A DNA stretch of 64,000 nucleotides from a virus (taxonomy: Duplodnaviria; Caudoviricetes): positions 1 to 64,000 of the IMG/VR virus record IMGVR_UViG_3300038974_000417; one strand, given 5' to 3'. A model generated the notes under the pieces. That model worked only from the letters and a program-made list of their open reading frames with translations, searched no databases and was not told where the DNA came from. The position numbers were made by a program, and so were the translations under genes. This document shows, in pieces, positions 6,142-45,323 of this stretch (its first letter is position 1; each line of letters opens with the position of its first letter).

Positions 6142-8532
6142 ATGGCTAGAACAATTGAATCACCCGGAGTAGAGATAAATGAACTTGATTTGAGTAATAT
6201 CTCAACTCTACCTGTTGGAACAAATATACTTGTTCAGGGTTTTGCAGCTCAAGGTCCCACAGATGAATTGGTTAATGTAACCAGTATTAAAGAGTTTGAA
6301 AAGCTTTATGGTGCACCTACTGTACCAGCTGAGAGGTATTTTTATCAAACCGCAAAAGAGATTTTAAATAGCCCTGGCCGCCTAATTGTAAATCGTTTAC
6401 CATATGGTGATGGAACTGGTGCTGGAACAGCCCCTACAAAGAGTGCGTTATTTTATCCATTCGTACCAGTAATGTCTGGTATGGACACCAGTGAGCTTTC
6501 TAGCATAAACTTAGCCCCAGGTGAGGTCGCTCTTGAAAATCTACAAGGTTTTGTATTAGGCGCTCCAATAATGGTACCTAATTTAAGTTCTCGTCAAATT
6601 AATGAAATTGCAAACGGTACAGTTTTTGGAAATAATACTATATACACTAAATCCTCTGCAATTGCATTAGCTCAATATGAGTTGTCTAGCGATAGTGCTA
6701 GCGTAGAGGAGTTGTACAATTTAGGTAGTGCAGCTGGTATAATAGTAATTAATAATAACTATACTAATATAGAGGACATATATACTGGTTATTATATTGG
6801 TATAAATGATAACTATAACATACGCGATTTGACATACGATCGATTTAAAAAGTGTTATACTCGCATAGGGGACGGTGATTATACTGATATAAGTTTATTA
6901 GATTATGACGTCACATTAAAAACTCCCTTAACTGGTACTAGTACTGGTACTCAGGGTAGTATATCCGAAATAGTTGAAGTGTCTCCGTCGTTTTCTACTA
7001 GTTTTGCACGTAACAGTGGTATAGATTATCAACAGTGTCTCGAATTTAGCTTGTGGAAGGTTTATGAGAGTGTAGATGAAACTCAAGGCAGTAACGTGAT
7101 GTTACGTTCTTATTATAATGTAGCTCCGTTCATTGGAAGCTTTGATAGAAATGATGTAGATACTTTAAATGATCCCTATGGTGGTAAATCGGCTCAGTCT
7201 ATATTCATCGAAGATGTTACTAGATCAGTTCCGGGAGTAAGACCGTGGTTGAATATCGTAGTCAATCCTATGATTAAGAGAATATTTTCTAAATCTGATC
7301 ATTTTATCAGAACTTGGCAGGGCAAGACAGCATTTGAAAGTGACCCAGTTGTTACGAGTAGGATATCTGGAGCGGGTATGACTACTGCATCTAATGAATT
7401 ATCAGCTGTATTTGGTGACGTTCGAATAAACGATGGATTGTTTGCCATCGGTCCTTATGCGCCTACTAGAGGGGTTGAGTCTAAGGTTATAGGTAATGTG
7501 GTACAAAAGATTGAACGTGGATTAAGTCTTGCAGAAAATGTAGATATGTATCAGCTTGAGTTGGTACTCGATGCTGGTCTTTCAACTATTAATGCGGTGA
7601 CTACTAATGTGGCTGCTCTGAAACGATCGGGGGCAAACACCTTTGATGATGAAGTTAATTTTATAGGTGTTGAAAGTGGAGTTGGTCAGCAGGATTGGAT
7701 GAATGTGTTTAATGTGTTGAATAATTTCTGCAGCCAAACCCGTAAGGATTGTATGTGTATTGTTGATCCACTACGTCATATATTCGTTCAGAATAAAGAT
7801 AGTAAAACTCTTGACGATAATTCTAAAGTGTTCTCTATAGATATATTAGAGCCTATGAAGAATTTAGTTAATACTTGTAATAGTAGTTATGCTGCTATAT
7901 ATGGTAACTGGGTTAAGGCTTACGAAGTAGCAAGTGGTACATATTTCTGGGCTCCGTTCTCTGGATATGAAGCTGCTATAATGGCTAGAATGGATGCATT
8001 ACTACAACCATGGTATGCTCCGGCAGGGTTAAATAACGGTATTATTCGTAATATAGTTGATATAGCTATAGAGCCAAATCAACGTGAACGTGACTTATTA
8101 TATCGTTATGGTATCAATCCTATTACAGTATTCCCTCGTGATGGATTTGTAGTATTTGGCCAGAAGACTTTGCAAGCTAAACCGAGTGCATTTGATAGAA
8201 TTAATGTACGTAGATTGTTCTTATTCCTAGAAAAGGCAACTCGTCAGTTGGCTAAATACTTCGTATTTGAACCTAATACAGTGTTTACACGTAATCGATT
8301 CGTTAATGTGTTGACTCCTATATTTGAGTTAGCTAAGCGAAATCAGGGTGTATATGATTATCTAATTGTATGCGATGAGCGTAATAATGATCCAGATACA
8401 ATAGATCGTAATGAGCTTGTATGTGATATATATATTAAGCCAGTTAGAACAGCCGAGTTCATTTTGGTCAACTTCATAGCTACTCGTACAGGTGCTAATT
8501 TCGAAGAGATAATTAGCGGTACTGGAGCTTAA
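6142..8532 (+). CDS. gp18: tail sheath protein
   Basis: N-terminal SPGVEINELD; C-terminal WYAPAG, FGQKTLQ, AFDRINVRRLF, IKPVRTAEFI. Confidence 0.95.
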   Translation: MARTIESPGVEINELDLSNISTLPVGTNILVQGFAAQGPTDELVNVTSIKEFEKLYGAPTVPAERYFYQTAKEILNSPGRLIVNRLPYGDGTGAGTAPTKSALFYPFVPVMSGMDTSELSSINLAPGEVALENLQGFVLGAPIMVPNLSSRQINEIANGTVFGNNTIYTKSSAIALAQYELSSDSASVEELYNLGSAAGIIVINNNYTNIEDIYTGYYIGINDNYNIRDLTYDRFKKCYTRIGDGDYTDISLLDYDVTLKTPLTGTSTGTQGSISEIVEVSPSFSTSFARNSGIDYQQCLEFSLWKVYESVDETQGSNVMLRSYYNVAPFIGSFDRNDVDTLNDPYGGKSAQSIFIEDVTRSVPGVRPWLNIVVNPMIKRIFSKSDHFIRTWQGKTAFESDPVVTSRISGAGMTTASNELSAVFGDVRINDGLFAIGPYAPTRGVESKVIGNVVQKIERGLSLAENVDMYQLELVLDAGLSTINAVTTNVAALKRSGANTFDDEVNFIGVESGVGQQDWMNVFNVLNNFCSQTRKDCMCIVDPLRHIFVQNKDSKTLDDNSKVFSIDILEPMKNLVNTCNSSYAAIYGNWVKAYEVASGTYFWAPFSGYEAAIMARMDALLQPWYAPAGLNNGIIRNIVDIAIEPNQRERDLLYRYGINPITVFPRDGFVVFGQKTLQAKPSAFDRINVRRLFLFLEKATRQLAKYFVFEPNTVFTRNRFVNVLTPIFELAKRNQGVYDYLIVCDERNNDPDTIDRNELVCDIYIKPVRTAEFILVNFIATRTGANFEEIISGTGA

Positions 8533-8617: not shown

Positions 8618-10441
8618 ATGTATATGACAAAGCAAGATGTAATTCAATTAAGGTGTGATTATACTAGGCACTATGTGGTAAAGCTTAAAACTCATCACAA
8701 GGGATTATTTAAAGAAATAGAAAAATATAACAATTGTATACAATGTGATTATGAAATGAGTAATAGTCAAAAAGTATATAATTGGTGTTATGATATTAAG
8801 AAGATACCAGCTTGTCCTGTTACTGGTAAACAGTTACAGTTTATTTCAAACAAGTGGGAATATAGAAAGTATGGTAAAAGGGGTGTTTTATCTGTAGAAG
8901 CTAATGATAGACGAGTTAAGACTAGAATAAAGAACGGTTGGGGATCACCTATAAAAACAGATTTTAAGAAATGTACAGCATCCACTCGTACTTTTGAAGA
9001 ATTAAAAGATATATTTACAAAAGAGCTAATTAATAATGCTGGAGCGTACATAATGAAGCTTAAATGTGTATATCCGAAAGAGCTTAAGCAGGTTTGGAGC
9101 ATGTACAATTGCTTTGAACCTGTTGGTGCTTGTGTATATTGCTTGTTGAATGGATGGAAGAGTGTTCCGATTTGTTCGGTTACTGGTAAGCCGAAGAAGT
9201 GGCTCGGCTTTAGAAGAGGATTTGCGGAATATAGTAATGATCAAAAAGTAGTTACTATGTTAAAGAGAAAACAAAGGAAATGGAGATATGAAATAGCAGA
9301 AATATACTCACGAGAAGACACTGTACAAAAATTACAAGAACAATTAAAAAACATTCCAAATAGGCAAAATCTTAAGCATATTTTATTTAAAATCGATCCC
9401 AGCTTAGTTAAGTCTATAGAACACCATACATACGGTGTACAGCTCTCTAGAAATACATTTGCAGAAAAAGCTTTTTATCTTATAAATGGAATGCCTCAGG
9501 ATAATGCTGGAAAAATTAAATATTATTTTGAATCTTTTGATACAGGATACGAGGAACGGTTCAAATATATTAATGAATCTAGGGGTGAGAATGAGGTAAG
9601 AAAATGGTTAAATGGCTTAGGTATTAGGACTGAGAAAAAGAGAATTAATAGATATCTTGAAATTGATATATATATGCCAGATTATAAAATCGGAATAGAA
9701 TATAACGGTGAGTATTATCACTCTAATTTATTTAAATCTCCTAATTTTCATTTAAATAAAACAGAACGATGTAGAGAACATGGTATAGTATTACTTCATA
9801 TATTTGATAGTGAATGGGTACAAAGACAGGAAATAATTAAATCTATTATTTTGTCAAAATTAAATTTAATTAAGAAAAAAATATATGCGAGAGAGTGTAT
9901 CGTACGTAATGTGAGTAGTGCTGAGCGAAAGTTGTTTTTGAATAATAACCATTTACAGGGAAACGACAAGTCATCAATTAGTGTTGGATTATATTATAAT
10001 GATGAATTGGTGTCAATAATGACGTTTGGTAACCGTAAGATAACAGGAAATACTCAATTTGAACTTCAGCGGTTTTGCAGTAAGCTTAATACTATAGTAA
10101 TTGGTGGCGCTTCTAAATTATTTTCATACTTTACAAAGACACATGGCAATATGAAGATTGTCACCTATGCAGATAGGAGACTAAGTACAGGTAATTTATA
10201 TCCAAAACTCGGGTTCACTTTATCTCATTATTCTCCACCTACATATTACTATTTTAAACCTGCTATGGGTGTATATATGAAATTATATCATCGATCCAAT
10301 TTTCAAAAACATATTCTACATAGACGTTTAAGTAGTTTTGACAGTGCCAAGTCGGAAAAGGAGAATATGAGTAATAATGGATATCTTCATGTTTACGATT
10401 GTGGTCATATGGTTTTTAAATATTGTGATTCTGCTCCATAG
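8618..10441 (+). CDS. Hef-like freestanding endonuclease (PD-(D/E)XK/Vsr-like core, C-terminal GNAT-like domain)
   Basis: EIDIYMPDYKIGIEYNGEYYHS; KKIYAREC, FLNNNHLQG, ELQRFC, TYADRR; two N-terminal CPVTGK/CSVTGK repeats. Confidence 0.75.
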   Translation: MYMTKQDVIQLRCDYTRHYVVKLKTHHKGLFKEIEKYNNCIQCDYEMSNSQKVYNWCYDIKKIPACPVTGKQLQFISNKWEYRKYGKRGVLSVEANDRRVKTRIKNGWGSPIKTDFKKCTASTRTFEELKDIFTKELINNAGAYIMKLKCVYPKELKQVWSMYNCFEPVGACVYCLLNGWKSVPICSVTGKPKKWLGFRRGFAEYSNDQKVVTMLKRKQRKWRYEIAEIYSREDTVQKLQEQLKNIPNRQNLKHILFKIDPSLVKSIEHHTYGVQLSRNTFAEKAFYLINGMPQDNAGKIKYYFESFDTGYEERFKYINESRGENEVRKWLNGLGIRTEKKRINRYLEIDIYMPDYKIGIEYNGEYYHSNLFKSPNFHLNKTERCREHGIVLLHIFDSEWVQRQEIIKSIILSKLNLIKKKIYARECIVRNVSSAERKLFLNNNHLQGNDKSSISVGLYYNDELVSIMTFGNRKITGNTQFELQRFCSKLNTIVIGGASKLFSYFTKTHGNMKIVTYADRRLSTGNLYPKLGFTLSHYSPPTYYYFKPAMGVYMKLYHRSNFQKHILHRRLSSFDSAKSEKENMSNNGYLHVYDCGHMVFKYCDSAP

Positions 10442-10448
10442 ATATCGT

Positions 10449-10739
10449 GTGAACAACCAGTGGCTAAAGCGCACTGGCTTCAGTTTAGAGCTTTAAGGCG
10501 CTCAAGGTGGATTCACTGCCACAGATTAACCTCTTCAGGGTACCAAAACGTTTGGTTTTATATCTTCTAGGCTTTCACCTCATCCATATACCGAAAGATA
10601 TATGTTGTTTATACCTATAATTATTTATGCTAACCAGCTAAATTTTCTTGCTTTTTAGCAAATTAATTTAATATAAACAATAAAGCTGGCAAAATTCATC
10701 CATGTGCTGAAGCATCATGGTTTTCTTTTGCAAGAAACA
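10449..10739 (-). mobile_element. non-autonomous IS200/IS605-type element, copy A (291 bp, omegaRNA-like, no tnpA/tnpB)
   Basis: identical to reverse complement of 41923-42213; preceded by TTAT, LE AAAA+bulged hairpin, RE GAAG+bulged hairpin, ends TTCAC, no target duplication. Confidence 0.85.
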
Positions 10740-10751
10740 ATAAATATTGTC

Positions 10752-11021
10752 GTGAATAGCCGTAGACGTAAATTTAAGCCAGGTGATTTGGTACGTATTA
10801 AGAAGTCAATACAGTATATATATCCGAGTGATTACGCTACTGCTATAGGAGTTATAGATGATATAGATGATTCAGATCAACTCAACACCGGTGTACTTAG
10901 TGTGCTATATGATAATGACGATGTTAGTGTTCTTATACCTGCATCCAATTTAGAACATGTCATGCCTGATGTAACCCCTGAGACTGATAAAGCATATAGG
11001 GATATATTTAAAGACCTATAA
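10752..11021 (+). CDS. small SH3/KOW-like beta-barrel hypothetical protein
   Basis: KFKPGDLVRIK motif; the ORF-track extension to 10704 lies mostly in element A, so GTG 10752 after ATAAATA is the likely start. Confidence 0.55.
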   Translation: MNSRRRKFKPGDLVRIKKSIQYIYPSDYATAIGVIDDIDDSDQLNTGVLSVLYDNDDVSVLIPASNLEHVMPDVTPETDKAYRDIFKDL

Positions 11022-11094: not shown

Positions 11095-11598
11095 ATGTCA
11101 ATACAAGAATTTTATAGTACATCACAACAGAAGGAATTTGCGCGCGATTTTCAATTTCGCGTAGTAACCTTAGGACCATTTGATGCTCAGGACTTATTAT
11201 ACGTACAGACCGCGACGCTTCCCGCTAAGACGGTTCAAAATCAAACCGCATCATTTATGGGGCTAGATTTTAATGTTCCTGGTAGTGTAAAGTATGATGG
11301 TAGTTCCAGCTGGAATATTACATTTTGGTGTGATGAAGGCCTTAACATCCGTAATAAAATGGAAAATTATGTTAAGACTATTTTTGATGATGAAACAAGC
11401 ACTGGTTTATATGGAGTGCCCACTGAAATAGCAACATTAGATTTACTCGGAAAAAATCGTGAAACGCTTCGTAGATATGATTTTTACGGTCTTTATCCGG
11501 TTACTGTAGGAGAGATATCTTATGATATACAGGGTTCGGGTACTATATTAACTGTTCCTTGTACGTTTGCATATCAATTCTGGCGTTTGCGTAAATAG
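11095..11598 (+). CDS. gp19: tail tube protein
   Basis: FARDFQFRV, TATLPAK, WNITFWCDE, CTFAYQFW; two CATAAATA motifs (11046, 11069) and AGGAG upstream. Confidence 0.9.
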   Translation: MSIQEFYSTSQQKEFARDFQFRVVTLGPFDAQDLLYVQTATLPAKTVQNQTASFMGLDFNVPGSVKYDGSSSWNITFWCDEGLNIRNKMENYVKTIFDDETSTGLYGVPTEIATLDLLGKNRETLRRYDFYGLYPVTVGEISYDIQGSGTILTVPCTFAYQFWRLRK

Positions 11599-11659: not shown

Positions 11660-13210
11660 ATGGCAGATGTCGTTAGAGTTATAACAGCCGGCAATCCCGG
11701 AGATACCCTCACCTCTTCAGTTCGAGGAATAGGTGGGGGTGCATTAGGTGCAGCAGCTGCAATGGCTACTCGAGCTACCTCTAATATACCGGGTGCAAAT
11801 GTTGCAATCGCTGGTCTTCAGAATATAGCCGGTGATTTTCTACAGGGTGATAGAAATGTTACAGGAATTTATAATGGATTTCTTACTCAAATATTACAAG
11901 ATTATACTAGTTCCCCATCTATTATGCCCCTGTGGGTGTGTTATATAGATATAGAAGAAAGAGATAAGATACAATTAGCTGATAAGTTAGATAAAAATAG
12001 TGGAGGTAAACATGTCACCACTAGACAGGGATTGCTGGGATTAAGTAGAGGTCAGCATTCGGCGGGAGATTTGGGTAGAGGTTTGGCTTTAATGTTTTGT
12101 CAGGGTGTACAGGTACCATCTGATTCTATATCTGTTAGACGAGATTCTTATAGTAGCGCAATTGGTGGATATATACCAGGATTAATAGGAGATAATAGAA
12201 GTCTTAGTGAAGTTACTATTTCGTTTCTAGAGAATAACGCAAGCTTTACGGATTTCGTTTTAAGGCCTTGGATGATGTATAATTCATATTATGGTATACC
12301 CAACGGAATTAAATCTAATATAATAATTGAAGAATATGTACGTACGTTACCTGATAAACCGTTGAGGTTAAGAAAGAAAATTACTTTACATAAAGCATTT
12401 CCAACAACTATAGATTCATTAAATTTACGGTATAAAGATACTGCAGATACTAGACAAATTCAGTTTGCATATGAAAGTTATAATATAGAAGAGGGTGGAG
12501 ATTGGGGAATATCTCAGATTAATAAGAATCAATCATTATTGGGTAAATTGGGTGAATTAGCTTTAAATGTAGCAACTGGGCTGGTCAATAAAGAGATTGA
12601 AAAGTTTGAATCTAATTTATTCTCAATTAAGCCTCAATTAGTTAATATAGAACCACCCGCTACACCCCCATCTGAGGTAGCTAAGCAAAGTGTATCGAAC
12701 GTTAGTATTACTAGCTCAGACCATGCTACACAATCGATTAAATCTCAAATAATAAAAAATATTAAAGATGATACACCTACGTTTGAATTGGTTAATAATA
12801 ATACCAAAAAGGTTATTATACCTGCAGAGGATATGATTGATATTACTCAACTGAAAAACATATCTAAGATTGATCAAGTAATTATACCTGAAGCTGATGT
12901 TGTCACTGCATCTGAAGTTCGAACTGATTATGTAGGAGTTTATCCACCTAAGGAAGACACGCCTACTCTAGCACCATTCAGAAGACCGGATCCTGCTACT
13001 ATATTGCCACGTGATGATATGATTTCTAGATCTACTAAAATAGATAAACAATCTGCTATTATTGGTAAAGATGATGAGGCTCTTAAGTCTAGGATAAATG
13101 TACAAAAAATATCAATTAATAGTAATGATTCTCGTAGAGACAAATCATACATACCTGTTCAAATAATATCTATTGGTACTAATGATTCTCGTGAACTACT
13201 AGGTAGCTAA
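11660..13210 (+). CDS. gp54: baseplate-tail tube initiator (gp54-like) with long repetitive C-terminal extension, truncated by element C
   Basis: tube-fold N half (VTISFLEN, WMMY, AFPTTI, FAYE); last residues ELLGS* are read from an inserted element end. Confidence 0.7.
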   Translation: MADVVRVITAGNPGDTLTSSVRGIGGGALGAAAAMATRATSNIPGANVAIAGLQNIAGDFLQGDRNVTGIYNGFLTQILQDYTSSPSIMPLWVCYIDIEERDKIQLADKLDKNSGGKHVTTRQGLLGLSRGQHSAGDLGRGLALMFCQGVQVPSDSISVRRDSYSSAIGGYIPGLIGDNRSLSEVTISFLENNASFTDFVLRPWMMYNSYYGIPNGIKSNIIIEEYVRTLPDKPLRLRKKITLHKAFPTTIDSLNLRYKDTADTRQIQFAYESYNIEEGGDWGISQINKNQSLLGKLGELALNVATGLVNKEIEKFESNLFSIKPQLVNIEPPATPPSEVAKQSVSNVSITSSDHATQSIKSQIIKNIKDDTPTFELVNNNTKKVIIPAEDMIDITQLKNISKIDQVIIPEADVVTASEVRTDYVGVYPPKEDTPTLAPFRRPDPATILPRDDMISRSTKIDKQSAIIGKDDEALKSRINVQKISINSNDSRRDKSYIPVQIISIGTNDSRELLGS

Positions 13211-13260
13211 AGCTACGCTAGCTTCGAGTTTAAAGCTTTTACTCTGGTCTGATTCACATT
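13191..13260 (-). mobile_element. right-end remnant of a related IS200/IS605-type element (C); left boundary approximate
   Basis: minus strand gtgaatc..aaagctttaaactcGAAGctagcgtagctttagctacctagtagttcac aligns with the 3' part of A/B. Confidence 0.75.
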
Positions 13261-13262
13261 GA

Positions 13263-13385
13263 GACCCATTCAACACCGTAAAATATCAAAATATAACAAC
13301 ATCCAAAAATGATTCACAACGACAGGGAGATTCAATTAAAAGTAAGATAATAGAATCTCCAATCACTGATGTAAATAATAGTTGA
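13263..13385 (+). pseudogene. orphaned C-terminal 40 codons of the gp54-like gene
   Basis: frame reads DPFNTVKYQNITTSKNDSQRQGDSIKSKII, continuing the Q-x-I-x4-NDS repeat of the upstream ORF. Confidence 0.6.
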
Positions 13386-14510: not shown

Positions 14511-17351
14511 ATGTCAACAAATACTGATATAAGTGCTCTAATAGAGCCGCTATTAAAAGATACTAATATTGCTTCCGATTTACAACGGAAAGTTAAGGAT
14601 GTATACTCTACTCTATTAGATAATTTATCCAAATCTGCCAAGGGTATTAAATTTGAGACTGGTACAGTTAATATCAGCTCGATGTTGGGGGTTGATCAAA
14701 AACAATCGTTATATACTTCACATAAGTATCAATCTTTACAGCGAACTATACTGGATAGGGTTCAAAAGTATGTAAGAACCACAGAGAGTAATATAGTATC
14801 GGAAGGTATAAATCTTGGTACTGTATTGGGTACATCTCAAAAAGAATCTTTTTTAACTTCTAGGAAGTTTCAATCCATAAAAAAATCTATTTTAGATAGA
14901 CTGCAAACTGATCTAGGACGCTATAAGGGTAATATAATTGGTAAATCCGGCATTAATTTGGGTGATATATTAGGAGGCGATCAAAAAGAATCTTTTTTAA
15001 CTTCTAGGAAGTTTCAATCCATAAAAAAATCTATTTTAGATAGACTGCAAACTGATCTAGGACGCTATAAGGGTAATATAATTGGTAAATCCGGCATTAA
15101 TTTGGGTGATATATTAGGAGGCGATCAAAAGAATTCTATATTAATCTCCATGAAATTTCAGTCTCTTAAGCGTAAAGTACTTAAGAAATTGGAGACTGAT
15201 TTAACCGATAAAAATTTAAGGTTGTTATCTACTGGCCAATTATCCATTGGTGATATAATGGGTGAGATCCCTGAAATGGGATTGTTTGAGCGTCTTAAGT
15301 TTCGTAAGCTTAGATCTAAAATGATGACTGCAATAGAGAAAAGTGTATTAGGCATTAAGGATGATAAATTAGATAAAAATGGAAACAAAGAGAGTGGTGG
15401 TCTTCGTATATTTGAGGAAGAAGCTACACCAGTTAAGTTGGTATCTATTGATGATGATATATTAAAAAACCTGTCTGGTGTGCTAGGGGCGGGTACTGCT
15501 GTGACAGCTGTTGCGGGTGGAGTTGATGCTAAGCCACCGGCAGGATTAACCAAGTGGATTGCACCGATTATTATGATAATAGCTAGTTTAGGTGCCTTAG
15601 CTACAGGATTAATGAGTACTGGTCCAGCTAAGGGTCTTATGACTATGCTTGGTAAAGTGGGTATAATGGCTAGTCTTAAAATGGTAGCCAAAATGGTGGG
15701 GAAGGTGTTAACCAAAACTCTGAAGTGGATACCACTGGTAGGTACTTTTGTGGATTTAGCGGATGCTTTTATGAGATTTAAGAATAAGGATTGGGCTGGT
15801 GGCTCAATAGCTTTAGTAGGTGGTTTATTGTCTTTGATTAATTTAGCAGCTCCAGGAGTGGGAACTGCGTTGTCTTTGGGGTGTTCGGCCTTAAATGCGT
15901 TTTTGGATTTTAAGGCTGGTGGGTCCAGTGAGGAGGCAAGTGTCAAGAAGATGGATATGATAAAGGACTTCTTACGACCATTTGGTGATGCAATATTACC
16001 TATATTAAAAGCTCTACCTCCTGTAGCATTGGGGATTGGATTATATAAAATAGCTAAGGGTGATGTTAAAGAGGGATTTGAAGCTATGGCAAAGAGTGTG
16101 TCGTGGATTCCGGTTATAGGAGAACCAATGGCTCGAGTAGCTTCATTTTTAGGTGAAAGAGCACAAGAGTGGACGGAGGCTAAATTTGGTACTGAGAGGC
16201 CTTTATGGGAATCTGTAAAAGATTATATTGTAGATAAATTCAAAAACGCTCTCAAGAGAGTTATAGCTATAGGTACTGGAATAAAAGAAATATTTACTGG
16301 GGATGTAGGTAAGGGATTTGGCACTGTTATTAGTGCTGTTTCTGATTTAGATTATATTGGTCCACCACTAGCTAAATTGGGGTCTTTCTTACAACAAAAA
16401 ACCGAGAATTTTAATGCTACTCATGGAGAACCTGGTCAGCCATTGTGGGAGAAAATAAGAGATTATTTGAGAGATAAAATCCAGGCTGCATGGAAGCGTC
16501 TTATAATGTTTGGTACAGGTATGCTTGATGTAGTTAAAGGAGATATACCTAGTGCTTTCGATAAGTTTGCGCAAGCGACTGATGGATTAGGTATAGTAGG
16601 ATCTGTATTTAATACTCTTAGGTGTTGGATGGAGGAGGCAGAGGAAGAGGCACCGACATGTCCGGGGTGTGAAGGAACAATTAATTTCTTTGCAGCGTTA
16701 AAGGATATAATGGTAGAAAAGATGTCTAGTGCTGTACAGAAGCTTCCCAGGATGGTTAGATTTGTATTATCTAAAATTCCAGGTTTTAAGGAATTCGTTG
16801 GTGATGAAAATTTTGATAATATAGGAGATGAGATATCTGATGCAATTGGTGATCTGGGAGCTGGTATTAAAGATGTTGTTGGTAGTAAGATAAAGGCTGG
16901 TAAGGATGCTGTGAGTGAGGGGTGGGGGAAATTAAAGAGTTGGAGGCCGTGGGGAGGAGATGAAGAGCAGGGTAGTCCGATACCTGTTACTGATTTTGCT
17001 GGTGTTATCAAGCCTGGTAATATTGTAGGATCGTTTAGGAATAATCCTATAGTTAATAGTGCCACAGATTATGTAATTGGTGCAAAGAGAGGTGGTCCTA
17101 TAGAGCAGAAGTTGACTGAATTAGTTGAATCTGTTAATAGTAATATGAAGGATTTAGCAATTAAAATATCTGAAAGTATTCAATCTGGTGTAGGAAATAT
17201 ACAACCAGCTTATATACCGATTCCGCCACCCGCAGTTAATATACCACCTCCGGCTCCTGCATCTATTGGATCCAGTAAAGCACCGAGTTATGCTGTGGGT
17301 AGTATATATAATCAACGTGCAAGATTTTATGCTTTATATGGAGATCAATAG
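14511..17351 (+). CDS. tape measure protein
   Basis: 946 aa, helical repeats, Gly/Ala-rich hydrophobic middle; position after chaperones. Confidence 0.8.
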   Translation: MSTNTDISALIEPLLKDTNIASDLQRKVKDVYSTLLDNLSKSAKGIKFETGTVNISSMLGVDQKQSLYTSHKYQSLQRTILDRVQKYVRTTESNIVSEGINLGTVLGTSQKESFLTSRKFQSIKKSILDRLQTDLGRYKGNIIGKSGINLGDILGGDQKESFLTSRKFQSIKKSILDRLQTDLGRYKGNIIGKSGINLGDILGGDQKNSILISMKFQSLKRKVLKKLETDLTDKNLRLLSTGQLSIGDIMGEIPEMGLFERLKFRKLRSKMMTAIEKSVLGIKDDKLDKNGNKESGGLRIFEEEATPVKLVSIDDDILKNLSGVLGAGTAVTAVAGGVDAKPPAGLTKWIAPIIMIIASLGALATGLMSTGPAKGLMTMLGKVGIMASLKMVAKMVGKVLTKTLKWIPLVGTFVDLADAFMRFKNKDWAGGSIALVGGLLSLINLAAPGVGTALSLGCSALNAFLDFKAGGSSEEASVKKMDMIKDFLRPFGDAILPILKALPPVALGIGLYKIAKGDVKEGFEAMAKSVSWIPVIGEPMARVASFLGERAQEWTEAKFGTERPLWESVKDYIVDKFKNALKRVIAIGTGIKEIFTGDVGKGFGTVISAVSDLDYIGPPLAKLGSFLQQKTENFNATHGEPGQPLWEKIRDYLRDKIQAAWKRLIMFGTGMLDVVKGDIPSAFDKFAQATDGLGIVGSVFNTLRCWMEEAEEEAPTCPGCEGTINFFAALKDIMVEKMSSAVQKLPRMVRFVLSKIPGFKEFVGDENFDNIGDEISDAIGDLGAGIKDVVGSKIKAGKDAVSEGWGKLKSWRPWGGDEEQGSPIPVTDFAGVIKPGNIVGSFRNNPIVNSATDYVIGAKRGGPIEQKLTELVESVNSNMKDLAIKISESIQSGVGNIQPAYIPIPPPAVNIPPPAPASIGSSKAPSYAVGSIYNQRARFYALYGDQ
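14837..15130 (+). repeat. exact 144-bp (48-aa) tandem duplication in tape measure
   Basis: 14837-14980 identical to 14981-15124, plus degenerate flanking units. Confidence 0.95.
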
Positions 17352-25978: not shown

Positions 25979-25990
25979 AAGTATATTTAC

Positions 25991-26038
25991 ACTCTTTAGC
26001 TGAGAAAGCTAGGATGGCTTAGCCACCTAGTAGTTCAC
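25991..26038 (+). mobile_element. 48-bp single-hairpin IS200/IS605-type unit (D)
   Basis: TTAC|actctttagctgagAAAG ctagg-a-tggc-tta-gcca-cctag tagttcac. Confidence 0.75.
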
Positions 26039-38613: not shown

Positions 38614-39900
38614 TTATATAATTTCGGGATTTAATCTTTTTAGCGCTGGACGAGGTTCGTTAGCTGATTTAAAATACATTTCACAGTGTTCGTCTATTCT
38701 GTCTTCTAGCCACATGGAATCAGCGTATTTACGGACCTTTTTACACATGTTAATGTATTGACTCTGGTCTTTGAGTAGATACTCTATTTGAGATATCATT
38801 TCTTCTCCAGTTTTAAATTTGATGGGGCAGTCTTTGTATGTCACCATGTCTTGACATATTGCTGGAATTCCCAACATTGCAGGTTCGAGATATTTAATAT
38901 TACTTTTTGCTCTATTAAATTCACAATCTATTAATGGTGCGATTACACAGTTTACGTCTAAGTTATCTATACCAACTGGATATTCAAGAATGGGGCTCCA
39001 GTTTACATATTCCATTATACCTCTATCAATAAACGGTTTAACTTTAAGAGGAAAACCACCCATAAATACCCACTTAAACTTATTTCTAGTTGATATAATA
39101 TAATCTACTACGTGTGCAAAATCATCTATTTGATTCGTTTTGTTTTGAATGTCAAAATGAGTACCAGATCCACAATAACCTATTCTGGGTCGTTTTTTAT
39201 GAATATTATATCGTTTACCCAGTTTATTAATGTCATATAACCTATCTCCCCAATACCGAGGAGGGTAGTTAGGTATTACTCTAATATTACTGTTACCTGT
39301 TTTCTTGATATAATATTGTTTCATGTATTCGCATGTAACAGTGATTTCATCTGCAATATTCATCATTTCTAATACACTGGCTACTATTCGATCATCTAAA
39401 AATGCTTCCTTACATCTATTAAAGTCTGGAATATCATCTTTAAAAATAATATCATCTACTTCGTATACTACTTTACCTCCAGTATCATTCATTACCTTTT
39501 TAACACACTTAAAAAAATCAAGCTGCTGTGGTGTAGCTTGACGTTGAAACTTAACGCATTTTAGGCCGTTTTTGTAATAGTTAGCATCACCGATCATACT
39601 GGTCATTCCCATGATAACACCTTTTTGGTATCCGTTTATCACAGTTTCTGGCCAAATCATTCTCCAGAAGCCACATCCACCATAATCAGCATGGTAGTTT
39701 AAGGCCCTGGGTAGACCGTGACCCGGAAGAGGTATCGGGGGAGGAGTAAAGTTGTGAATTACAGGGATTATTTTGTTAATTACCGGTTGAGATCCAGGAA
39801 TACCTGGGACTGAGAGACCTAGGGTCGCCGGCTCATATCTGATGGATGGTTTATTATCAGATGTTATTTGACAATTATGTTGATTTTTAAATTTTAGCAT
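38614..39900 (-). CDS. GT-B glycosyltransferase upstream of DNA polymerase
   Basis: GCGFWRM, YEVDD, IGYCGSGTH, APLIDCEFNRAKSNIKYLE; ATG 39900 follows TTGATT-N17-TATAAT. Confidence 0.75.
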   Translation of the reverse strand: MLKFKNQHNCQITSDNKPSIRYEPATLGLSVPGIPGSQPVINKIIPVIHNFTPPPIPLPGHGLPRALNYHADYGGCGFWRMIWPETVINGYQKGVIMGMTSMIGDANYYKNGLKCVKFQRQATPQQLDFFKCVKKVMNDTGGKVVYEVDDIIFKDDIPDFNRCKEAFLDDRIVASVLEMMNIADEITVTCEYMKQYYIKKTGNSNIRVIPNYPPRYWGDRLYDINKLGKRYNIHKKRPRIGYCGSGTHFDIQNKTNQIDDFAHVVDYIISTRNKFKWVFMGGFPLKVKPFIDRGIMEYVNWSPILEYPVGIDNLDVNCVIAPLIDCEFNRAKSNIKYLEPAMLGIPAICQDMVTYKDCPIKFKTGEEMISQIEYLLKDQSQYINMCKKVRKYADSMWLEDRIDEHCEMYFKSANEPRPALKRLNPEII

Positions 39901-39941
39901 GTATATTATTATATATATTAATTTGTTAAAAATCAACGGCT

Positions 39942-41738
39942 ATGAAGAAGATAATTTTTAAGAACATAAGAGTGTGTAATTTTTTATCTATTGGATCTAG
40001 AGAGATTAAATTAGATTTTACTCCTGGTATAAATTTAATAACTGGTATAAATTTAGATAAAGAAGATACTGGAAACGGGAGTGGTAAATCAAGCTTAGTC
40101 AATTCTATATATTTTGCTTTATATGGCAGAACTTTGAAGGATTTAAAGGTAGATAAAATTCCTAATAGTTTTACTAGAGGACCATGTCGGGTGACTCTGG
40201 ATTTTGATGTATGTCATAATAATAATTTTACTTCTTATTCGGTTATTAGATCTCTCCGCCCTACTAAATTAAAAATATTAAGGGATGGGGAGGATATTAC
40301 TAAGAGTACTATTATTCAGACTACCGAGTTATTGCAGGATATTATTAGTTGCTCTAGTACGGTTTTTGAAAATAGTATAGTAATGGATGCTAATAGTGCT
40401 ACCAATTTTATGTCCCAGAAGAAGGTAGAAAAGCGTAAATTCTTAGAGGGTATTTTAAATCTTACAATATTTGGTGAGATGTTGAGTATTGCTCGAGCTG
40501 ATTATAATGATGCACGATATCAGTTTGATATAGAAAACGCAAAGCTTCAGTCTGAGGTTTCAGCTCTTGATAATTATAGGAAACAATTAGACAGACAGAA
40601 GAGCGTAAGGGACGAGAGACGTGAGGAATTACAGGGTAGAATTAATGAGATATCTAAGGAGATGGAGTCTTTAAGTAGTAACATTAAAAGCATTCCATCT
40701 GATGAAGAGTTGGGGGTTATAAAATCTAAATGTAGTAAATTGGATGATGCTCTGTCTACCAATCGATTAAATTATAAGAAGTTAATCAAGTTGGAGGCTG
40801 AGGTGAATCAGTCCAAGAAGCATTTGATGGAGAGGCTTGATAAGTTAATTAATTTACCTAATGAGTGTGTGGAGTGTGGTCGTTCATTTTCTGACGAGGA
40901 TCGAAGGGTGGTGGGGGATGAGTGCGCGAAGATGAGGGTTGATATATCGGATATCACTAATAAAATTTCGGACGTTAGGAATCAAATTGGTGTAATTGAG
41001 GATCAATATAAAAAAATAGAACAGGGTAAGTTGTTATTATCTCAAAAGCAGAATAATATTAAGGCCTCTGAGAAGCATAATGAAACCGTTAATTGGCGAA
41101 TTATGCAATTATCTAAAACTCTTGATACTTTGCATAAGGATTTGATTGCAGTTGATAGGGACGATTCTGGGTTGACGGATACTATATCTAGTATATCTAA
41201 AAAGGTAGATGGTATACGGGAGACGGTCAACCGGTTGAATGTTAAGATGGATATATTAAAATCTTCTAAATTTATTTTATCAGAAGAGGGTATTCGTAGC
41301 TTTATAGTTAAGAGAATTTTACGAATACTTAATAGTAAGTTGAATATGTATTTAGCCAAGTTAGATGCTAATACTAGATGTGAATTTAATGAATACTTTG
41401 AGGAGTCTCTTTGGGATATATCTGGTAATGAGAGAAGTTATTATAATTTTAGCAATGGGGAACAGCGCCGAATAGACTTGGCTATTCTTTTTGCATTTCA
41501 AGATATTCGTCGTTTACAGGCTGATGTGGATATGAATATTAGTATATATGACGAACTGTTGGATAGTAGTTTGGATAGGAGGGGGTCAGAGCTGGTGATT
41601 GCTTTGTTAAAAGAGCGGGCTGATAAAAATAAGGAGTGTGTATATATAGTTAGTCATCGTAAGGAAGCTCAATCTAGTTATACTAATAAAGTTGTTACGT
41701 TACAGAAGAAGAATGGTATAACTACTCTGGTAGACTAG
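39942..41738 (+). CDS. gp46: Rad50/SbcC-like recombination ATPase
   Basis: GNGSGKS, coiled coils with CVEC hook, FSNGE signature, IYDELLDSSLD, SH. Confidence 0.95.
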   Translation: MKKIIFKNIRVCNFLSIGSREIKLDFTPGINLITGINLDKEDTGNGSGKSSLVNSIYFALYGRTLKDLKVDKIPNSFTRGPCRVTLDFDVCHNNNFTSYSVIRSLRPTKLKILRDGEDITKSTIIQTTELLQDIISCSSTVFENSIVMDANSATNFMSQKKVEKRKFLEGILNLTIFGEMLSIARADYNDARYQFDIENAKLQSEVSALDNYRKQLDRQKSVRDERREELQGRINEISKEMESLSSNIKSIPSDEELGVIKSKCSKLDDALSTNRLNYKKLIKLEAEVNQSKKHLMERLDKLINLPNECVECGRSFSDEDRRVVGDECAKMRVDISDITNKISDVRNQIGVIEDQYKKIEQGKLLLSQKQNNIKASEKHNETVNWRIMQLSKTLDTLHKDLIAVDRDDSGLTDTISSISKKVDGIRETVNRLNVKMDILKSSKFILSEEGIRSFIVKRILRILNSKLNMYLAKLDANTRCEFNEYFEESLWDISGNERSYYNFSNGEQRRIDLAILFAFQDIRRLQADVDMNISIYDELLDSSLDRRGSELVIALLKERADKNKECVYIVSHRKEAQSSYTNKVVTLQKKNGITTLVD

Positions 41739-42217
41739 AGATTGCCCAAAAAATCTTTAAAGCTGTCGAATGTTTTAGATGAAGTATTTTTAATAGCTTC
41801 ATATTCATTTGACTTTTTAATAAATGCACTATTTGCTTCATGTTCACCCATTTTTTTACCTATTTGAGTGGGTAACCATTCATTCAATCTATGTTGTAGT
41901 TCTTCTAATATAACCGACTTATTGTTTCTTGCAAAAGAAAACCATGATGCTTCAGCACATGGATGAATTTTGCCAGCTTTATTGTTTATATTAAATTAAT
42001 TTGCTAAAAAGCAAGAAAATTTAGCTGGTTAGCATAAATAATTATAGGTATAAACAACATATATCTTTCGGTATATGGATGAGGTGAAAGCCTAGAAGAT
42101 ATAAAACCAAACGTTTTGGTACCCTGAAGAGGTTAATCTGTGGCAGTGAATCCACCTTGAGCGCCTTAAAGCTCTAAACTGAAGCCAGTGCGCTTTAGCC
42201 ACTGGTTGTTCACTCAT
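41735..42217 (-). pseudogene. 63-aa gene interrupted after its 4th base by element B
   Basis: removing 41923-42213 gives AAGGAG-N10-ATG AAT AAG TCG GTT..., MNKSVILEELQHRLNEWL...DFLGNL*. Confidence 0.75.
41923..42213 (+). mobile_element. non-autonomous IS200/IS605-type element, copy B (291 bp)
   Basis: TTAT 41919-22; AAAA 41938-41; hairpin 41942-62; GAAG 42181-84; hairpin 42185-205; ends TTCAC; identical to copy A. Confidence 0.85.
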
Positions 42218-42230
42218 TGTATTAATACTC
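42045..42230 (+). ncRNA. putative TnpB-type omegaRNA scaffold plus flank-derived guide; ends approximate
   Basis: UUCG- and GAAA-capped hairpins then RE hairpin; CATAAATA at 42033-42040; function inferred from IS200/IS605 biology. Confidence 0.45.
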
Positions 42231-42273
42231 CTTGTACGGCCTTTTATTATATTTATATATTCTAAATATTTGA

Positions 42274-42561
42274 ATGAAGAGGAAGTATAGGAGATTGCTT
42301 AATCGATCTGGATTAGAGAAATGTGAGATATGTGGTAGAGAGGGAATTTTAGTACAGCATCATATCCGTGGTAGGAATATCCCTAATGCCAATCATCCGA
42401 GCAATTTAGCTAACATATGTCCCAACTGTCATGCTGATATACATAATGGTATTATTATATTAGAAGACTGGGTGATGACCACCGGTGGATATGAATTATT
42501 ATATCATCATTACAAAGAACCTAGTTTAACTGGTAATGATGCTAAGCCTTGGTTAATTTAA
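42274..42561 (+). CDS. small HNH endonuclease
   Basis: CEIC..HHI..N...CPNCHADIH. Confidence 0.85.
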   Translation: MKRKYRRLLNRSGLEKCEICGREGILVQHHIRGRNIPNANHPSNLANICPNCHADIHNGIIILEDWVMTTGGYELLYHHYKEPSLTGNDAKPWLI

Positions 42562-43539
42562 GTTGGTTATATCTATTGAATGTCTTATAGCTTGCCACAT
42601 ATCAAGGTATTTATATGTAGCTAGTCTCCCGGTGAATATAACATTTTTTTCATCTTTAGCAAGATTAGCATATTTTTGATATATTTCTTTACCTGAGCCA
42701 AACGGTATTGGATAGAAGGGTATATTATTGTTATCATGTTCAATGGGATATTCTTCAGTAATAATAGTGCTGCCGGAGTGATTATAGGTGAAATAGCTAT
42801 GATCGTATACTCTAGTATATGGAATATTTTTTATATTTTGATTTATTATAAATGTATTCATTTTTTCTTTATTTTGTTTATGTTTAAAATTTAGTGATCT
42901 ATAGGGTAATCTACCGTACTGAAGGTTAAAGTATTCATCTATTTTACCGGTATATACTAATAAGTCACATTTTACATTTTTCCACTCGTTATTATCAACG
43001 CATAGGTTGTATTTAATACCGTCTAACATATTAGTCATCATATTAGTATAGCCGTATTTAGGTATACATTGATACTTTTGACCTTCAAACCAGGTGGGAT
43101 CTTCATGTTTTGCTACTTTAGGTATTCTGTTAATAATTTCTGTGGGTATTTGATTAAATTTTACTCCCCATTGTTTTTCTGAATATCCCACAAATATATA
43201 TTTTAAAATTTCATCTTCTGATAATTCCCTACCAATTTCCTTTATAGTTTTTTTACTATATGGAAGCGACAGTAGTCCCAGTTTAGTATTACCCTTCGGC
43301 TTAAGTTGAAATGGGATCCACTCAGTATATCTACTAAGTAGTAAATATACCTCTTCATCATCAGTGTGAAATATATGTGGGCCATATAGATGAACTAAAG
43401 TATTCTTTATTTTTTCATCATAACAATTACCACCTATATGTGATCTATTTTCAAAAATTTCTATATTATGTCCTTGTTCTTTAAGTTTTATAGCACATAC
43501 AATACCCGATAAGCCGCAGCCAATAATATTAATTTTCAT
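42553..43539 (-). CDS. glf: UDP-galactopyranose mutase
   Basis: IIGCGLSG FAD motif, HIGGNCYD, YGPHIFHT, GRLATYKYLDM. Confidence 0.93.
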   Translation of the reverse strand: MKINIIGCGLSGIVCAIKLKEQGHNIEIFENRSHIGGNCYDEKIKNTLVHLYGPHIFHTDDEEVYLLLSRYTEWIPFQLKPKGNTKLGLLSLPYSKKTIKEIGRELSEDEILKYIFVGYSEKQWGVKFNQIPTEIINRIPKVAKHEDPTWFEGQKYQCIPKYGYTNMMTNMLDGIKYNLCVDNNEWKNVKCDLLVYTGKIDEYFNLQYGRLPYRSLNFKHKQNKEKMNTFIINQNIKNIPYTRVYDHSYFTYNHSGSTIITEEYPIEHDNNNIPFYPIPFGSGKEIYQKYANLAKDEKNVIFTGRLATYKYLDMWQAIRHSIDITNLN

Positions 43540-44354
43540 ATCGTTTGTATTAACCGATTTATTTCAACCAAAGCACTGTCGCGTGATAAGCATATGTTGT
43601 CTAATTTTCTTTGGTTATGAATGATATATTTTTGTAGTTCTTTATCTTTTTCGATTCTTTCATAGTTAATTAATAAATCAGAAAGATCGCGCTTTACTGG
43701 TATGAAGTTTTCCCATGGTTTAAGGTACCTATAAAACCATTCATACCACGGACGCGATACTATAAATACAATGCGTTTTGATGACAGTAGATATTTAAGT
43801 CTACCTGAATAACCGACACCTTCTACGTCTATTAAATATTTCCATTTTTTTATCTGTTCTTCGTAATTCAAGTATTGTCCACCTATAATACAATCTGTGT
43901 TAATTCTGTCCCAGATGTTAGATCTTATATCAAGTGTATCTGTATTAGATTGTCCTAATTTATATAATGTCTTTCGAGTTGTAATACTATCTGTACCTGC
44001 CCCAATCCACCCTATCTTATTAGTCTCGGGAGTTACGTCGATTTTATTAATTAATGAGCGAACGTCTTCATAGTCCTTATATCCCACATGGCGATAGCAG
44101 TCATAGTTAAAGTCAGGGAATGTTTCGTTAAAATTTTGAGTAGTAGTTGAATATTTGAAGGTTTTAGCGCTACCTATATCATATGGTGAGTCATCTACAT
44201 TAACGATAAATTCAATTTGTTTTCTAATTTTAAATTTGTCAATGGTGCTTCTTATGAGTTTAATAGTACTTAAGCATCTGTCTTCATATCCATTTTCAAT
44301 AAAGTAGCGCTGGTTGCTATTATTTAGCATGCATTTTACATACTGTATATTCAT
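43536..44354 (-). CDS. glycosyltransferase, GT90/CAP10-like
   Basis: KYLIDVEGVGYSGRLKYLL, WFYRYLKPWENFIPVKRDLSDL. Confidence 0.85.
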   Translation of the reverse strand: MNIQYVKCMLNNSNQRYFIENGYEDRCLSTIKLIRSTIDKFKIRKQIEFIVNVDDSPYDIGSAKTFKYSTTTQNFNETFPDFNYDCYRHVGYKDYEDVRSLINKIDVTPETNKIGWIGAGTDSITTRKTLYKLGQSNTDTLDIRSNIWDRINTDCIIGGQYLNYEEQIKKWKYLIDVEGVGYSGRLKYLLSSKRIVFIVSRPWYEWFYRYLKPWENFIPVKRDLSDLLINYERIEKDKELQKYIIHNQRKLDNICLSRDSALVEINRLIQTI

Positions 44355-44369
44355 ATTATTGTACTTTCA

Positions 44370-45323
44370 TTATGTATTAATTGATTCAATCAATTGTATA
44401 TATCTATCAACCACCACGTTCCAGTCAAATTTACTAAGTACGTATTCCCTGATTTTGTCGCGCATATTAATAGAAATTCGTTTATTCTCGTCTATTACAT
44501 TTCTGATATATTGTTTGTCTGATATTTTATTTTCAGGTATTACTGCAATAAATGGTTGATCTACGTCTAAGTTTTGGCATGCGTATTCCGATAGCACTAA
44601 TCCTAGACCTGCACACATGGCTTCCATGCAAACTAGCGGATGTCCCTCACCGTCGCTTAGTAGTACTAAATTTGCATAATCCGTCAGCTTAGTATAAATC
44701 TCTTCCTTAAATAGCGTACCTTTGTAGTATTGTAAAAATCTATCCATCGTAGAGTCTTTTCGGACGCCATAGAAATCTATGTCCTGTGATATATCTTCAA
44801 GTATATATTGTCTTTTGCGAAACTCAACTGATGCTAAATATATTGATTTATTGGAATTACAAGTGCTGGAATATTTAATTTTTTCCTTATTGACTCCATT
44901 ATATGATAGGAAGAGTCTTTTTTCATCAAAACCTGCGTCTCTATATACTTTCATTGCTTCTGGAGATAGACAAAATATATTACCTGAATACGAAAGAAAT
45001 TTTTGAAATATATATGGATACGGTCTGAATACCGGGTGATATTTTGGTCGATCTAGATATCCATAGTGAGATGTGACAGCCTGTTTTTTGCAGTTTATAT
45101 ATTTCATTACATCGATATGTTGATCGTGATGCAGGTGTACGAAATCCGGTGAAAACTCGTTTACATTTTTTACTATAGTACTAAAATCTTTTGTATTAGT
45201 AATCAATACCTTGTGACCCTTGTTTTTTAGAGTGTTAGCTACGTCCCATATTAATATTTCCGTTGCTCCCCAGCCTCTGGGTGGTATTTCTATTTCCCCT
45301 GGTCCTATTAGTGCTATTTTCAT
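44370..45323 (-). CDS. glycosyltransferase, GT4-like
   Basis: IPPRGWGATE, EGHPLVCMEAMCAG. Confidence 0.85.
   Translation of the reverse strand: MKIALIGPGEIEIPPRGWGATEILIWDVANTLKNKGHKVLITNTKDFSTIVKNVNEFSPDFVHLHHDQHIDVMKYINCKKQAVTSHYGYLDRPKYHPVFRPYPYIFQKFLSYSGNIFCLSPEAMKVYRDAGFDEKRLFLSYNGVNKEKIKYSSTCNSNKSIYLASVEFRKRQYILEDISQDIDFYGVRKDSTMDRFLQYYKGTLFKEEIYTKLTDYANLVLLSDGEGHPLVCMEAMCAGLGLVLSEYACQNLDVDQPFIAVIPENKISDKQYIRNVIDENKRISINMRDKIREYVLSKFDWNVVVDRYIQLIESINT

Follow-up and report, generated by a model that had tools for sequence, protein, structure and literature searches.

A protein-less IS605-type mini-element with a candidate omegaRNA module in T4-like phage genomes

Results and discussion

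We found two copies of a 291-bp protein-less element (hereafter referred to as the mini) in the window, the whole 64,000-nt stretch of DNA analysed here, and interpret it, with a probability of about 0.65, as a non-autonomous, PATE-like deletion derivative of an IS605/IS1341-type transposon in T4-like phages, whose RNA would act as a guide for a TnpB supplied in trans. The window corresponds to the initial 64 kb of a 73.3-kb IMG/VR record (label G000; CheckV completeness about 35%) and derives from a distant T4-like myovirus, with a sheath gene at 6142-8532, a homing-endonuclease-like gene (607 aa) at 8618-10441 and a tube gene at 11095-11598 (~27-30% identity to T4-group gp19). Homing-endonuclease genes adjoin both copies of the element. 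A 95-aa HNH endonuclease ORF (42274-42561, +) starts 60 nt 3' of the right end of copy B on the same strand and would be covered by read-through from the promoter of that copy. Megablast and blastn searches with the element and its surroundings gave no match in cultured phage records. Elsewhere in the window, two tandem 144-nt copies with 90% identity (14805-15092) lie within a 946-aa ORF (14511-17351).

Copies, boundaries and insertion sites

The two copies are inverted and 100% complementary over 295 nt (10449-10743, minus strand; 41919-42213, plus strand). Because the first four shared nucleotides, TTAT, are target flank, the element proper measures 291 bp, lying at 41923-42213 (+) in copy B, after the TTAT target or transposon-adjacent motif (TAM) at 41919-41922 (+), and at 10449-10739 (-) in copy A, with TTAT at 10743-10740 and the promoter motif at 10629-10622. 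The initial annotation had described a 291-bp element with both transposon ends, no tnpA or tnpB and different flanks at its two copies; the exact inverted copies and the homology of the ends to TnpA/TnpB elements uphold this description, and the flanks read ACGATATCTATGGAGC at copy A and TCATTGTATTAATACT at copy B. The sense strand of the element contains no ORF of at least 40 aa, the only ORF being an antisense one of 41 aa, and no remains of tnpB were detected in the mini beyond the non-coding 3' module.

Using short patterns from the element, we retrieved loci from viral and metagenome contigs and obtained 25 further distinct element-plus-flank stretches in public contigs, which together with the exact repeat exclude chance. 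Comparison of the junctions revealed that TTAT or TTAC and the bases onward are the only sequence common to independent insertions, and five viral records behind the loci share the element alone with positions 39000-45000 of the window. All insertions, long and short, lie after TTAT/TTAC and end in GTTCAC. An empty/occupied pair was provided by L031, which matches G000 70018-72715 at 99% identity apart from a mini placed exactly after TTAT: the site is uninterrupted in this genome between 72437 and 72438 (...ATTTAT/CAAATAC...) and reads ...ATTTAT-element-CAAATAC... in L031, which shows insertion directly after TTAT without target-site duplication. Such insertion 3' of a conserved tetranucleotide, with no duplication, is that of the IS200/IS605 family, and the element ends (TGTTTC... 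and ...GTTCAC) are not inverted repeats, with subterminal hairpins present at both. Exact patterns for the empty forms of sites A and B, plus a pattern for the flank of site A, were absent from viral contigs, and the empty sites of both window copies were therefore not found there.

Full-length relatives and TnpB in the phage lineage

The left end of the mini is ~75% identical over 146 nt, and its last 44 nt are 91-93% identical, to full-length elements carrying TnpA and TnpB. One such element (L005) encodes a 138-aa Y1 transposase TnpA (PF01797, 1.3e-39) and a 372-aa TnpB (PF07282, 1.2e-20), while a long form with the same ends (L007) encodes TnpB alone. Other TnpB-bearing relatives occur in L018, L019, L024 (56% identity), L025, L027, L032 and L033, and the ends of the mini are homologous to those of L005 (TnpA and TnpB), L007, L019, L027 and L033. 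Since full-length relatives carry the same left and right ends, we regard the mini as a deletion derivative of an IS605-type element. The left-end subterminal hairpin (CCATGATGC-TTCA-GCACATGG; 41942-41962, +), which folds and aligns with full-length left ends, is presumed to be a TnpA binding site, and GAAAA just 5' of this hairpin (+) is the presumed DNA guide for TTAT; among the elements, GAAAG at this position occurs together with TTAC targets and GAAAA with TTAT targets. The right-end subterminal hairpin (AGCCAGUG-C-GC-UUUA-GC-CACUGGUU; 42183-42207, +) likewise folds, is 91-93% identical to L005 and L007 and has outer pairs that covary among end types; it presumably serves both as a TnpA binding site and as the last omegaRNA stem.

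We further examined the TnpB proteins of these relatives. In the alignment of six related TnpBs, none departs from the RuvC residues D186, E262 and D340. The nearest solved structures are TnpB/Cas12f-like proteins, and ISDra2 TnpB is matched at E = 9e-8. Minis and a TnpB element occur on one contig in L010, L027, L032 and L033, and the L007, L027, L032 and L015 contigs are syntenic with this phage (35-65% protein identity); the TnpB nuclease is therefore present in the phage lineage. Within the 73-kb record, which covers about 35% of the genome, we detected no match to TnpA, and the only TnpB-family match (11.4 bits) fell below the cut-off. A TnpB profile search of genome contigs gave no relative and hence no host lead, and a search starting from the divergent L024 TnpB gave no new relatives. 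The earlier proposal of a trans-encoded TnpB thus stands as far as intact TnpBs with matching ends exist in the lineage, whereas none is present in the 73 kb of this phage.

A T4-late-promoter-like motif shared with full-length elements

The T4 late promoter has the consensus TATAAATA. The mini contains the T4-late-promoter-like octamer CATAAATA at 42033-42040 (+), and, as noted initially, the same octamer precedes both the sheath gene (44 nt before the ATG) and the tube gene (48 and 25 nt before the ATG). All eight full-length relatives carry (C/T/G)ATAAATA at a distance of 12-38 nt before the ATG of their first IS gene, tnpA or tnpB, a position that is kept also in long forms with an unrelated sequence farther 5'. 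Minis and long forms align collinearly at their left ends as far as ...CATAAATAATTATAG, which is situated just before the tnpA/tnpB ATG, and in the left-end alignment of the mini with long forms collinearity ends at ...GCATAAATAATTATAG. The octamer shows no variation among the mini copies that extend to it, whereas neighbouring bases vary. Across the window, 14 of the 49 ATAAATA sites lie at most 80 nt upstream of a gene start; YATAAATA is not enriched overall (26 matches vs 36 expected), and a scan of ten ORFs yielded no late sigma factor. On our reading of these sequences, the ATAAATA of the mini would be the parent element's own T4-late-type promoter, kept by the deletion. The notion that the cassette had been wired to a phage late promoter consequently needs revision: a promoter-like ATAAATA is indeed kept, but it would be the parent's tnpA/tnpB promoter rather than new wiring.

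A conserved putative RNA module at the right end

We then analysed the sequence downstream of the promoter motif. The sense strand folds better than shuffled sequences (z = -4.3) and than the antisense strand (z = -2.6), and the UUCG- and GAAA-capped hairpins reported previously are present (tips CUUUCGG and GGU-GAAA-GCC). The first hairpin, H1 (CAUAUAUC-UUUC-GGUAUAUG; 42058-42077, +), folds and is probably the counterpart of the long stem directly 5' of H4 in TnpB-bearing elements, an assignment that follows from shared 11-12-mers (the 12-mer TATCTTTCGGTA in the long stem of L007 and TATCTTACGGT in that of L019); MAFFT and the covariance model place the long stem of the TnpB elements at the H2/H3 region rather than at H1. 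A mini-specific structured block of ~62 nt (42078-42139, +) follows, with a GAAA-capped hairpin, H2 (ACCAAACGUUUUGGU), which shows compensatory variants among minis (A-U / G-C / U.G), and H3 (CCU-GAAG-AGG). The TnpB-bearing relatives all lack this block, and scanning metagenomes for it recovered minis only. A hammerhead-like reading of CUGAAGAG / GAUGAG within the block was considered and dropped for want of an Rfam ribozyme match. Further downstream lie H4 (GUGG-CAGUGAAU-CCAC; 42140-42155, +), whose five kinds of stem keep pairing around a conserved loop, and H5 (GAGC-GCCUUAAA-GCUC; 42159-42174, +), whose closing pair is G-C, G.U or A-U among minis. The module ends, after the right-end hairpin, in GUUCAC (42208-42213, +), which is at once the transposon right terminus and the predicted 3' half of a pseudoknot, directly before the guide.

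An alignment with the 3' ends of tnpB elements covers the final 75-105 nt of the mini and extends to the common terminus GTTCAC. In the long forms, the long stem, which is tipped by UUAC or UUUC and covaries among L005, L007, L019, L024 and L033, abuts H4, whose loop holds GUGAAUC. H4 itself varies in its stem (GGTCT/AGACC, GCCTA/TAGGC, GGCCT/AGGCC and GGCTG/CAGCC, with GTGG/CCAC in minis). RNAalifold on four long forms predicted that the H4 loop GUGAAU (42146-42151 in copy B, +) pairs with the terminal GUUCAC, and complementarity between loop and terminal hexamer is full in 16 of 16 modules from minis and full-length elements. Both sides are changed in L024 (AUGAAU/GUUCAU), and this single compensatory event supports the predicted pseudoknot. 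Pairing of guide-adjacent bases with an upstream segment into a pseudoknot characterises both the ISDra2 omegaRNA and Cas12 guide RNAs (PMC10097598), and the modelled pairing of the H4 loop with the terminus would correspond to this typical feature of TnpB guide RNAs.

A covariance model (R1) built from four TnpB-bearing long forms only, with no minis, matched both mini copies in the window (36 bits, E = 2e-5; 10449-10554 in copy A), with the first stem poorly aligned. In Rfam 15, by contrast, neither the gathering score nor E-values up to 10 gave a match for the element, although Rfam may hold no model for this clade. The proposed similarity to omegaRNA models accordingly holds for a model from the cognate TnpB elements and not for any Rfam family, and the wider claim of a protein-less IS200/IS605 derivative that keeps its omegaRNA end is borne out by the R1 match, the shared terminus and a guide position that abuts differing flanks.

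Among nine mini variants, all 40 pairs of the structure are always paired, and five of them show compensatory change. The eight variable columns of the core fall in two hairpin loops, one linker and five stems, the pair being kept in all five stem cases, and none of 500 shuffles reached either the observed covariation score or the observed percentage paired. This covariation is supportive rather than conclusive because the sequences are few and close, with a handful of events. The core is at least 95% identical across minis, while the ends are of three types that are only ~75% alike.

These patterns bear on an alternative that we consider unlikely but not negligible, in which the mini is a passive MITE or PATE, a recent deletion relic moved by TnpA in trans, with no functional RNA and conserved merely through youth. 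The copies are 90-100% identical, leaving little time for decay; smaller relics that lack the core occur in the same genome (for example, a 48-bp stub at 25991-26038); and no TnpB is encoded in the 73 kb. However, a passive relic would hardly conserve its core more than the ends that TnpA needs, nor would it be expected that five stem substitutions all keep pairing, one of them via a G.U intermediate on the sense strand, that the promoter motif stays invariant amid varying neighbours, or that forms without the left-end hairpin retain the promoter, the core and the right end.

A second alternative, which appears improbable, is that the core is an RNA or single-stranded DNA structure with another role, such as antisense or regulatory action on neighbouring genes or a fold needed in transposition, instead of a TnpB guide. 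The 62-nt block shows no relationship to the 3' end of any TnpB element, read-through from copy A would be antisense to the endonuclease-like gene at 8618-10441 and that from copy B antisense to the start of a split 63-codon ORF, and the top strand is also the strand on which TnpA acts. Yet the neighbours and the orientation differ at every insertion site, which leaves no common regulatory target, and it is precisely the omegaRNA stems and the pseudoknot that are shared with TnpB elements. As regards the preferred guide reading itself, the lack of a counterpart of the 62-nt block in TnpB elements and the poor alignment of the first stem in R1 may speak against compatibility with TnpB.

Predicted guides and their targets

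By its position relative to the right end and by analogy with TnpB omegaRNAs, the predicted 16-nt guide of copy B is the flank sequence UCAUUGUAUUAAUACU (42214-42229, +), and that of copy A is ACGAUAUCUAUGGAGC (10433-10448, -), which overlaps the stop codon of the endonuclease-like gene at 8618-10441. Neither guide has another match in the window, which agrees with homing to the site of the element itself rather than with a regulatory target. The element-free target site in the 99%-identical genome pair is consistent with the suggestion that element-free co-infecting phages are cut.

Several observations concern the insertion sites themselves. At site A, the empty form (10740-10760, +) and, for the L031 site, G000 72430-72445 restore NATAAATA on the strand opposite the element, and insertion took place at the first base of the restored NATAAATA motif at both sites. 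On the other strand, the empty L031 site reads G/ATAAATA, and the empty form of site A would read T/ATAAATA. A small GTG-started ORF (to 11021) begins five bases after the NATAAATA motif at site A. The association of insertion sites with ATAAATA is explained by TTAT being part of its reverse complement. Copy B splits a 63-codon minus-strand ORF (41735-41922 and 42214-42217) right after ATGA; the start of this ORF reads AAGGAG, 10 nt, ATG A / AT AAG ..., the remainder is stop-free to ...FLGNL and the stop codon, and the interrupted start opens a 41-aa ORF that runs into the element.

The initial annotation had also raised guidance of a TldR-like, nuclease-dead relative of TnpB for the repression of phage late promoters, a scenario we judge very improbable. 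The empty sites of copy A and L031 do restore NATAAATA and place the guides beside late-promoter-like motifs, but the occurrence of TTAT within the reverse complement of ATAAATA accounts for this association, the guide at an occupied site is not flanked by a TAM, and the window offers no second target for either guide. Because the related TnpBs keep the RuvC D-E-D residues (six of six aligned), there is no sign of a nuclease-dead relative or of repression at promoters, and neither part of that proposal finds support. Finally, although a compact structured RNA, homing-endonuclease genes beside both copies and a small ORF interrupted by copy B might recall a group I intron or an IStron-like self-splicing element, this reading was rejected as almost certainly wrong, given that no Rfam intron model matches even at E = 10, ~145 of the 291 nt are transposon left end with IS605-type boundaries, the endonuclease-like protein beside copy A is full length and copy B is antisense to the ORF it splits.

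Remnants and variant forms

A third omegaRNA module was detected at 13191-13286 (-; 13191-13296 in the R1 search) as a right-end-only remnant of an L027-type TnpB element (R1, 77 bits, E = 7e-14). This module shares 99% identity with the L027 TnpB element at the 3' end of the latter and retains a tblastn trace of TnpB residues 349-370, with no 62-nt block, promoter or ATAAATA motif, or recognisable left end; the guide taken from its flank would read GAGAAUCAUUAGUACC. The 48-bp stub mentioned above (25991-26038, +), located after TTAC at 25987-25990, joins an L033-type left start (ACTCTTTAGCTGAGAAAGCTAGGATGGC) to a right-end tail (..GCCACCTAGTAGTTCAC) and is a one-hairpin relic without the core.

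Short minis without the left-end hairpin were found in L026, L027, L028, L038, L041 (6669-6897) and the L037/L009/L012 group, and these forms retain promoter, core and right end alike. Their first bases, ATTAAATTAATTTGC or TGTTTATATTAAATT, immediately follow TTAC/TTAT, with at least five different left flanks, and the junctions of these forms correspond to two internal TTAT sites of the full mini. L035 (1152-1267) shows a nested insertion, in which a mini interrupts the left end of a different element at the TTAT within CATAAATAATTAT, immediately following that element's promoter motif. L026 (916-1149) and L041 (12471-12766) have the same right flank (AGTATTAGTAAGGAAAG...) and different left flanks, one being a full mini and the other a short form, which suggests recombination between element copies. 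Several minis also lie between or just after tRNA genes in phage tRNA clusters (L034, L039, L040 and L026), with left flanks that close with ...CCA and then TTTAT; the minis of L034 and L039 have the left flank, left end and core in common and differ in right-end type and right flank.

A proposed mechanism and its implications

Taken together, the comparisons suggest the following route for the favoured reading, a PATE-like derivative with guide function in trans. A deletion would have removed the tnpA/tnpB coding sequence and fused the left end and the ATAAATA promoter of the parent to the 3' omegaRNA module, with the mini-specific 62-nt structured block placed between the promoter part and this module. 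During infection, the motif would drive an RNA of ~170 nt across the right end into the flank, and a TnpB from a full-length relative, encoded in the unsampled part of the genome or by a co-infecting phage, may bind the scaffold of the mini. With 16 flank bases as guide, TnpB could then cut TTAT-plus-guide at the corresponding locus of genomes without the element or in which it has been lost, and recombinational repair from an occupied copy would restore or spread the element in a homing-like manner, while TnpA acting in trans would move the mini to new TTAT/TTAC sites. The many distinct insertion sites and the one presence/absence pair are indirect signs of such mobilisation.

A bolder version, to which we assign a low probability, is that minis are guide-only hyperparasites of phage TnpB elements, in which a late promoter and the 62-nt domain allow them to load TnpB from the same or a co-infecting phage and to spread by RNA-guided homing. 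Forms without the left-end hairpin are presumably not excisable by TnpA and, if minis are such hyperparasites, would persist and spread by homing alone.

If the RNA is made and used, the phage lineage would carry many small guide genes that borrow one nuclease, each mini marking its own insertion site for RNA-guided homing between co-infecting genomes. T4-like phages would then offer a simple system for measuring the share of TnpB-type homing in the spread of protein-less elements. Independently of this, the natural variants, which combine a conserved core and an additional RNA domain with three types of ends and include minis lacking the left-end hairpin as well as stubs made of ends only, constitute a ready deletion series for the needs of TnpA and of TnpB.

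Comparison with known systems

Free-standing homing endonucleases of T4-like phages cut the element-free allele of a co-infecting genome, which is followed by recombinational copying. The outcome predicted for the mini is the same, but its specificity would come from a flank-derived RNA guide and the nuclease from another element. IS608 of Helicobacter pylori inserts 3' of TTAC without duplication and has subterminal hairpins, with AAAG 5' of the left hairpin matching TTAC. The mini follows the same scheme with AAAA and TTAT; it differs in having no genes and in the shift of the target to TTAT in the subfamily of the window. The TAM of ISDra2 is TTGAT. As in the ISDra2 TnpB omegaRNA resolved by cryo-EM (PMC10097598), the predicted scaffold of the mini ends at the right end, takes its guide from the flank and contains a pseudoknot and several stems, whereas the two show no sequence similarity, the TAM of the mini is TTAT/TTAC and its pseudoknot partner lies in a hairpin loop ~60 nt upstream.

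The closest parallels are found among bacterial elements that lack proteins. PATEs often encode omegaRNAs that need TnpB in trans (Meers et al., 10.1101/2023.03.14.532601), and the PATE-like IS200/IS605 elements of Geobacillus stearothermophilus described there resemble the mini in being protein-less, in sharing their ends with TnpB/TnpA elements of the same family and in keeping the omegaRNA, with TnpB and TnpA needed in trans, as would be the case for the mini. Unlike them, the mini resides in lytic-type T4-like phage genomes, has a T4-late-like ATAAATA promoter from phage-adapted parents, contains a 62-nt block foreign to those parents and occurs in forms without the left hairpin. According to PMC10691335, stand-alone omegaRNAs function in trans, and those of the OMEGA systems (Altae-Tran et al. 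2021, as related there) are likewise mobilised guide loci without effector or transposase in effector-bearing genomes; they are located on bacterial chromosomes with trans function shown, whereas the mini is in phage, with TnpB in related contigs only and a function predicted from sequence. Stand-alone omegaRNA elements acting in trans are thus already published for bacteria and are here documented in phage, and since the concept is already in the literature, the value of the present case lies in the system and not in a new principle.
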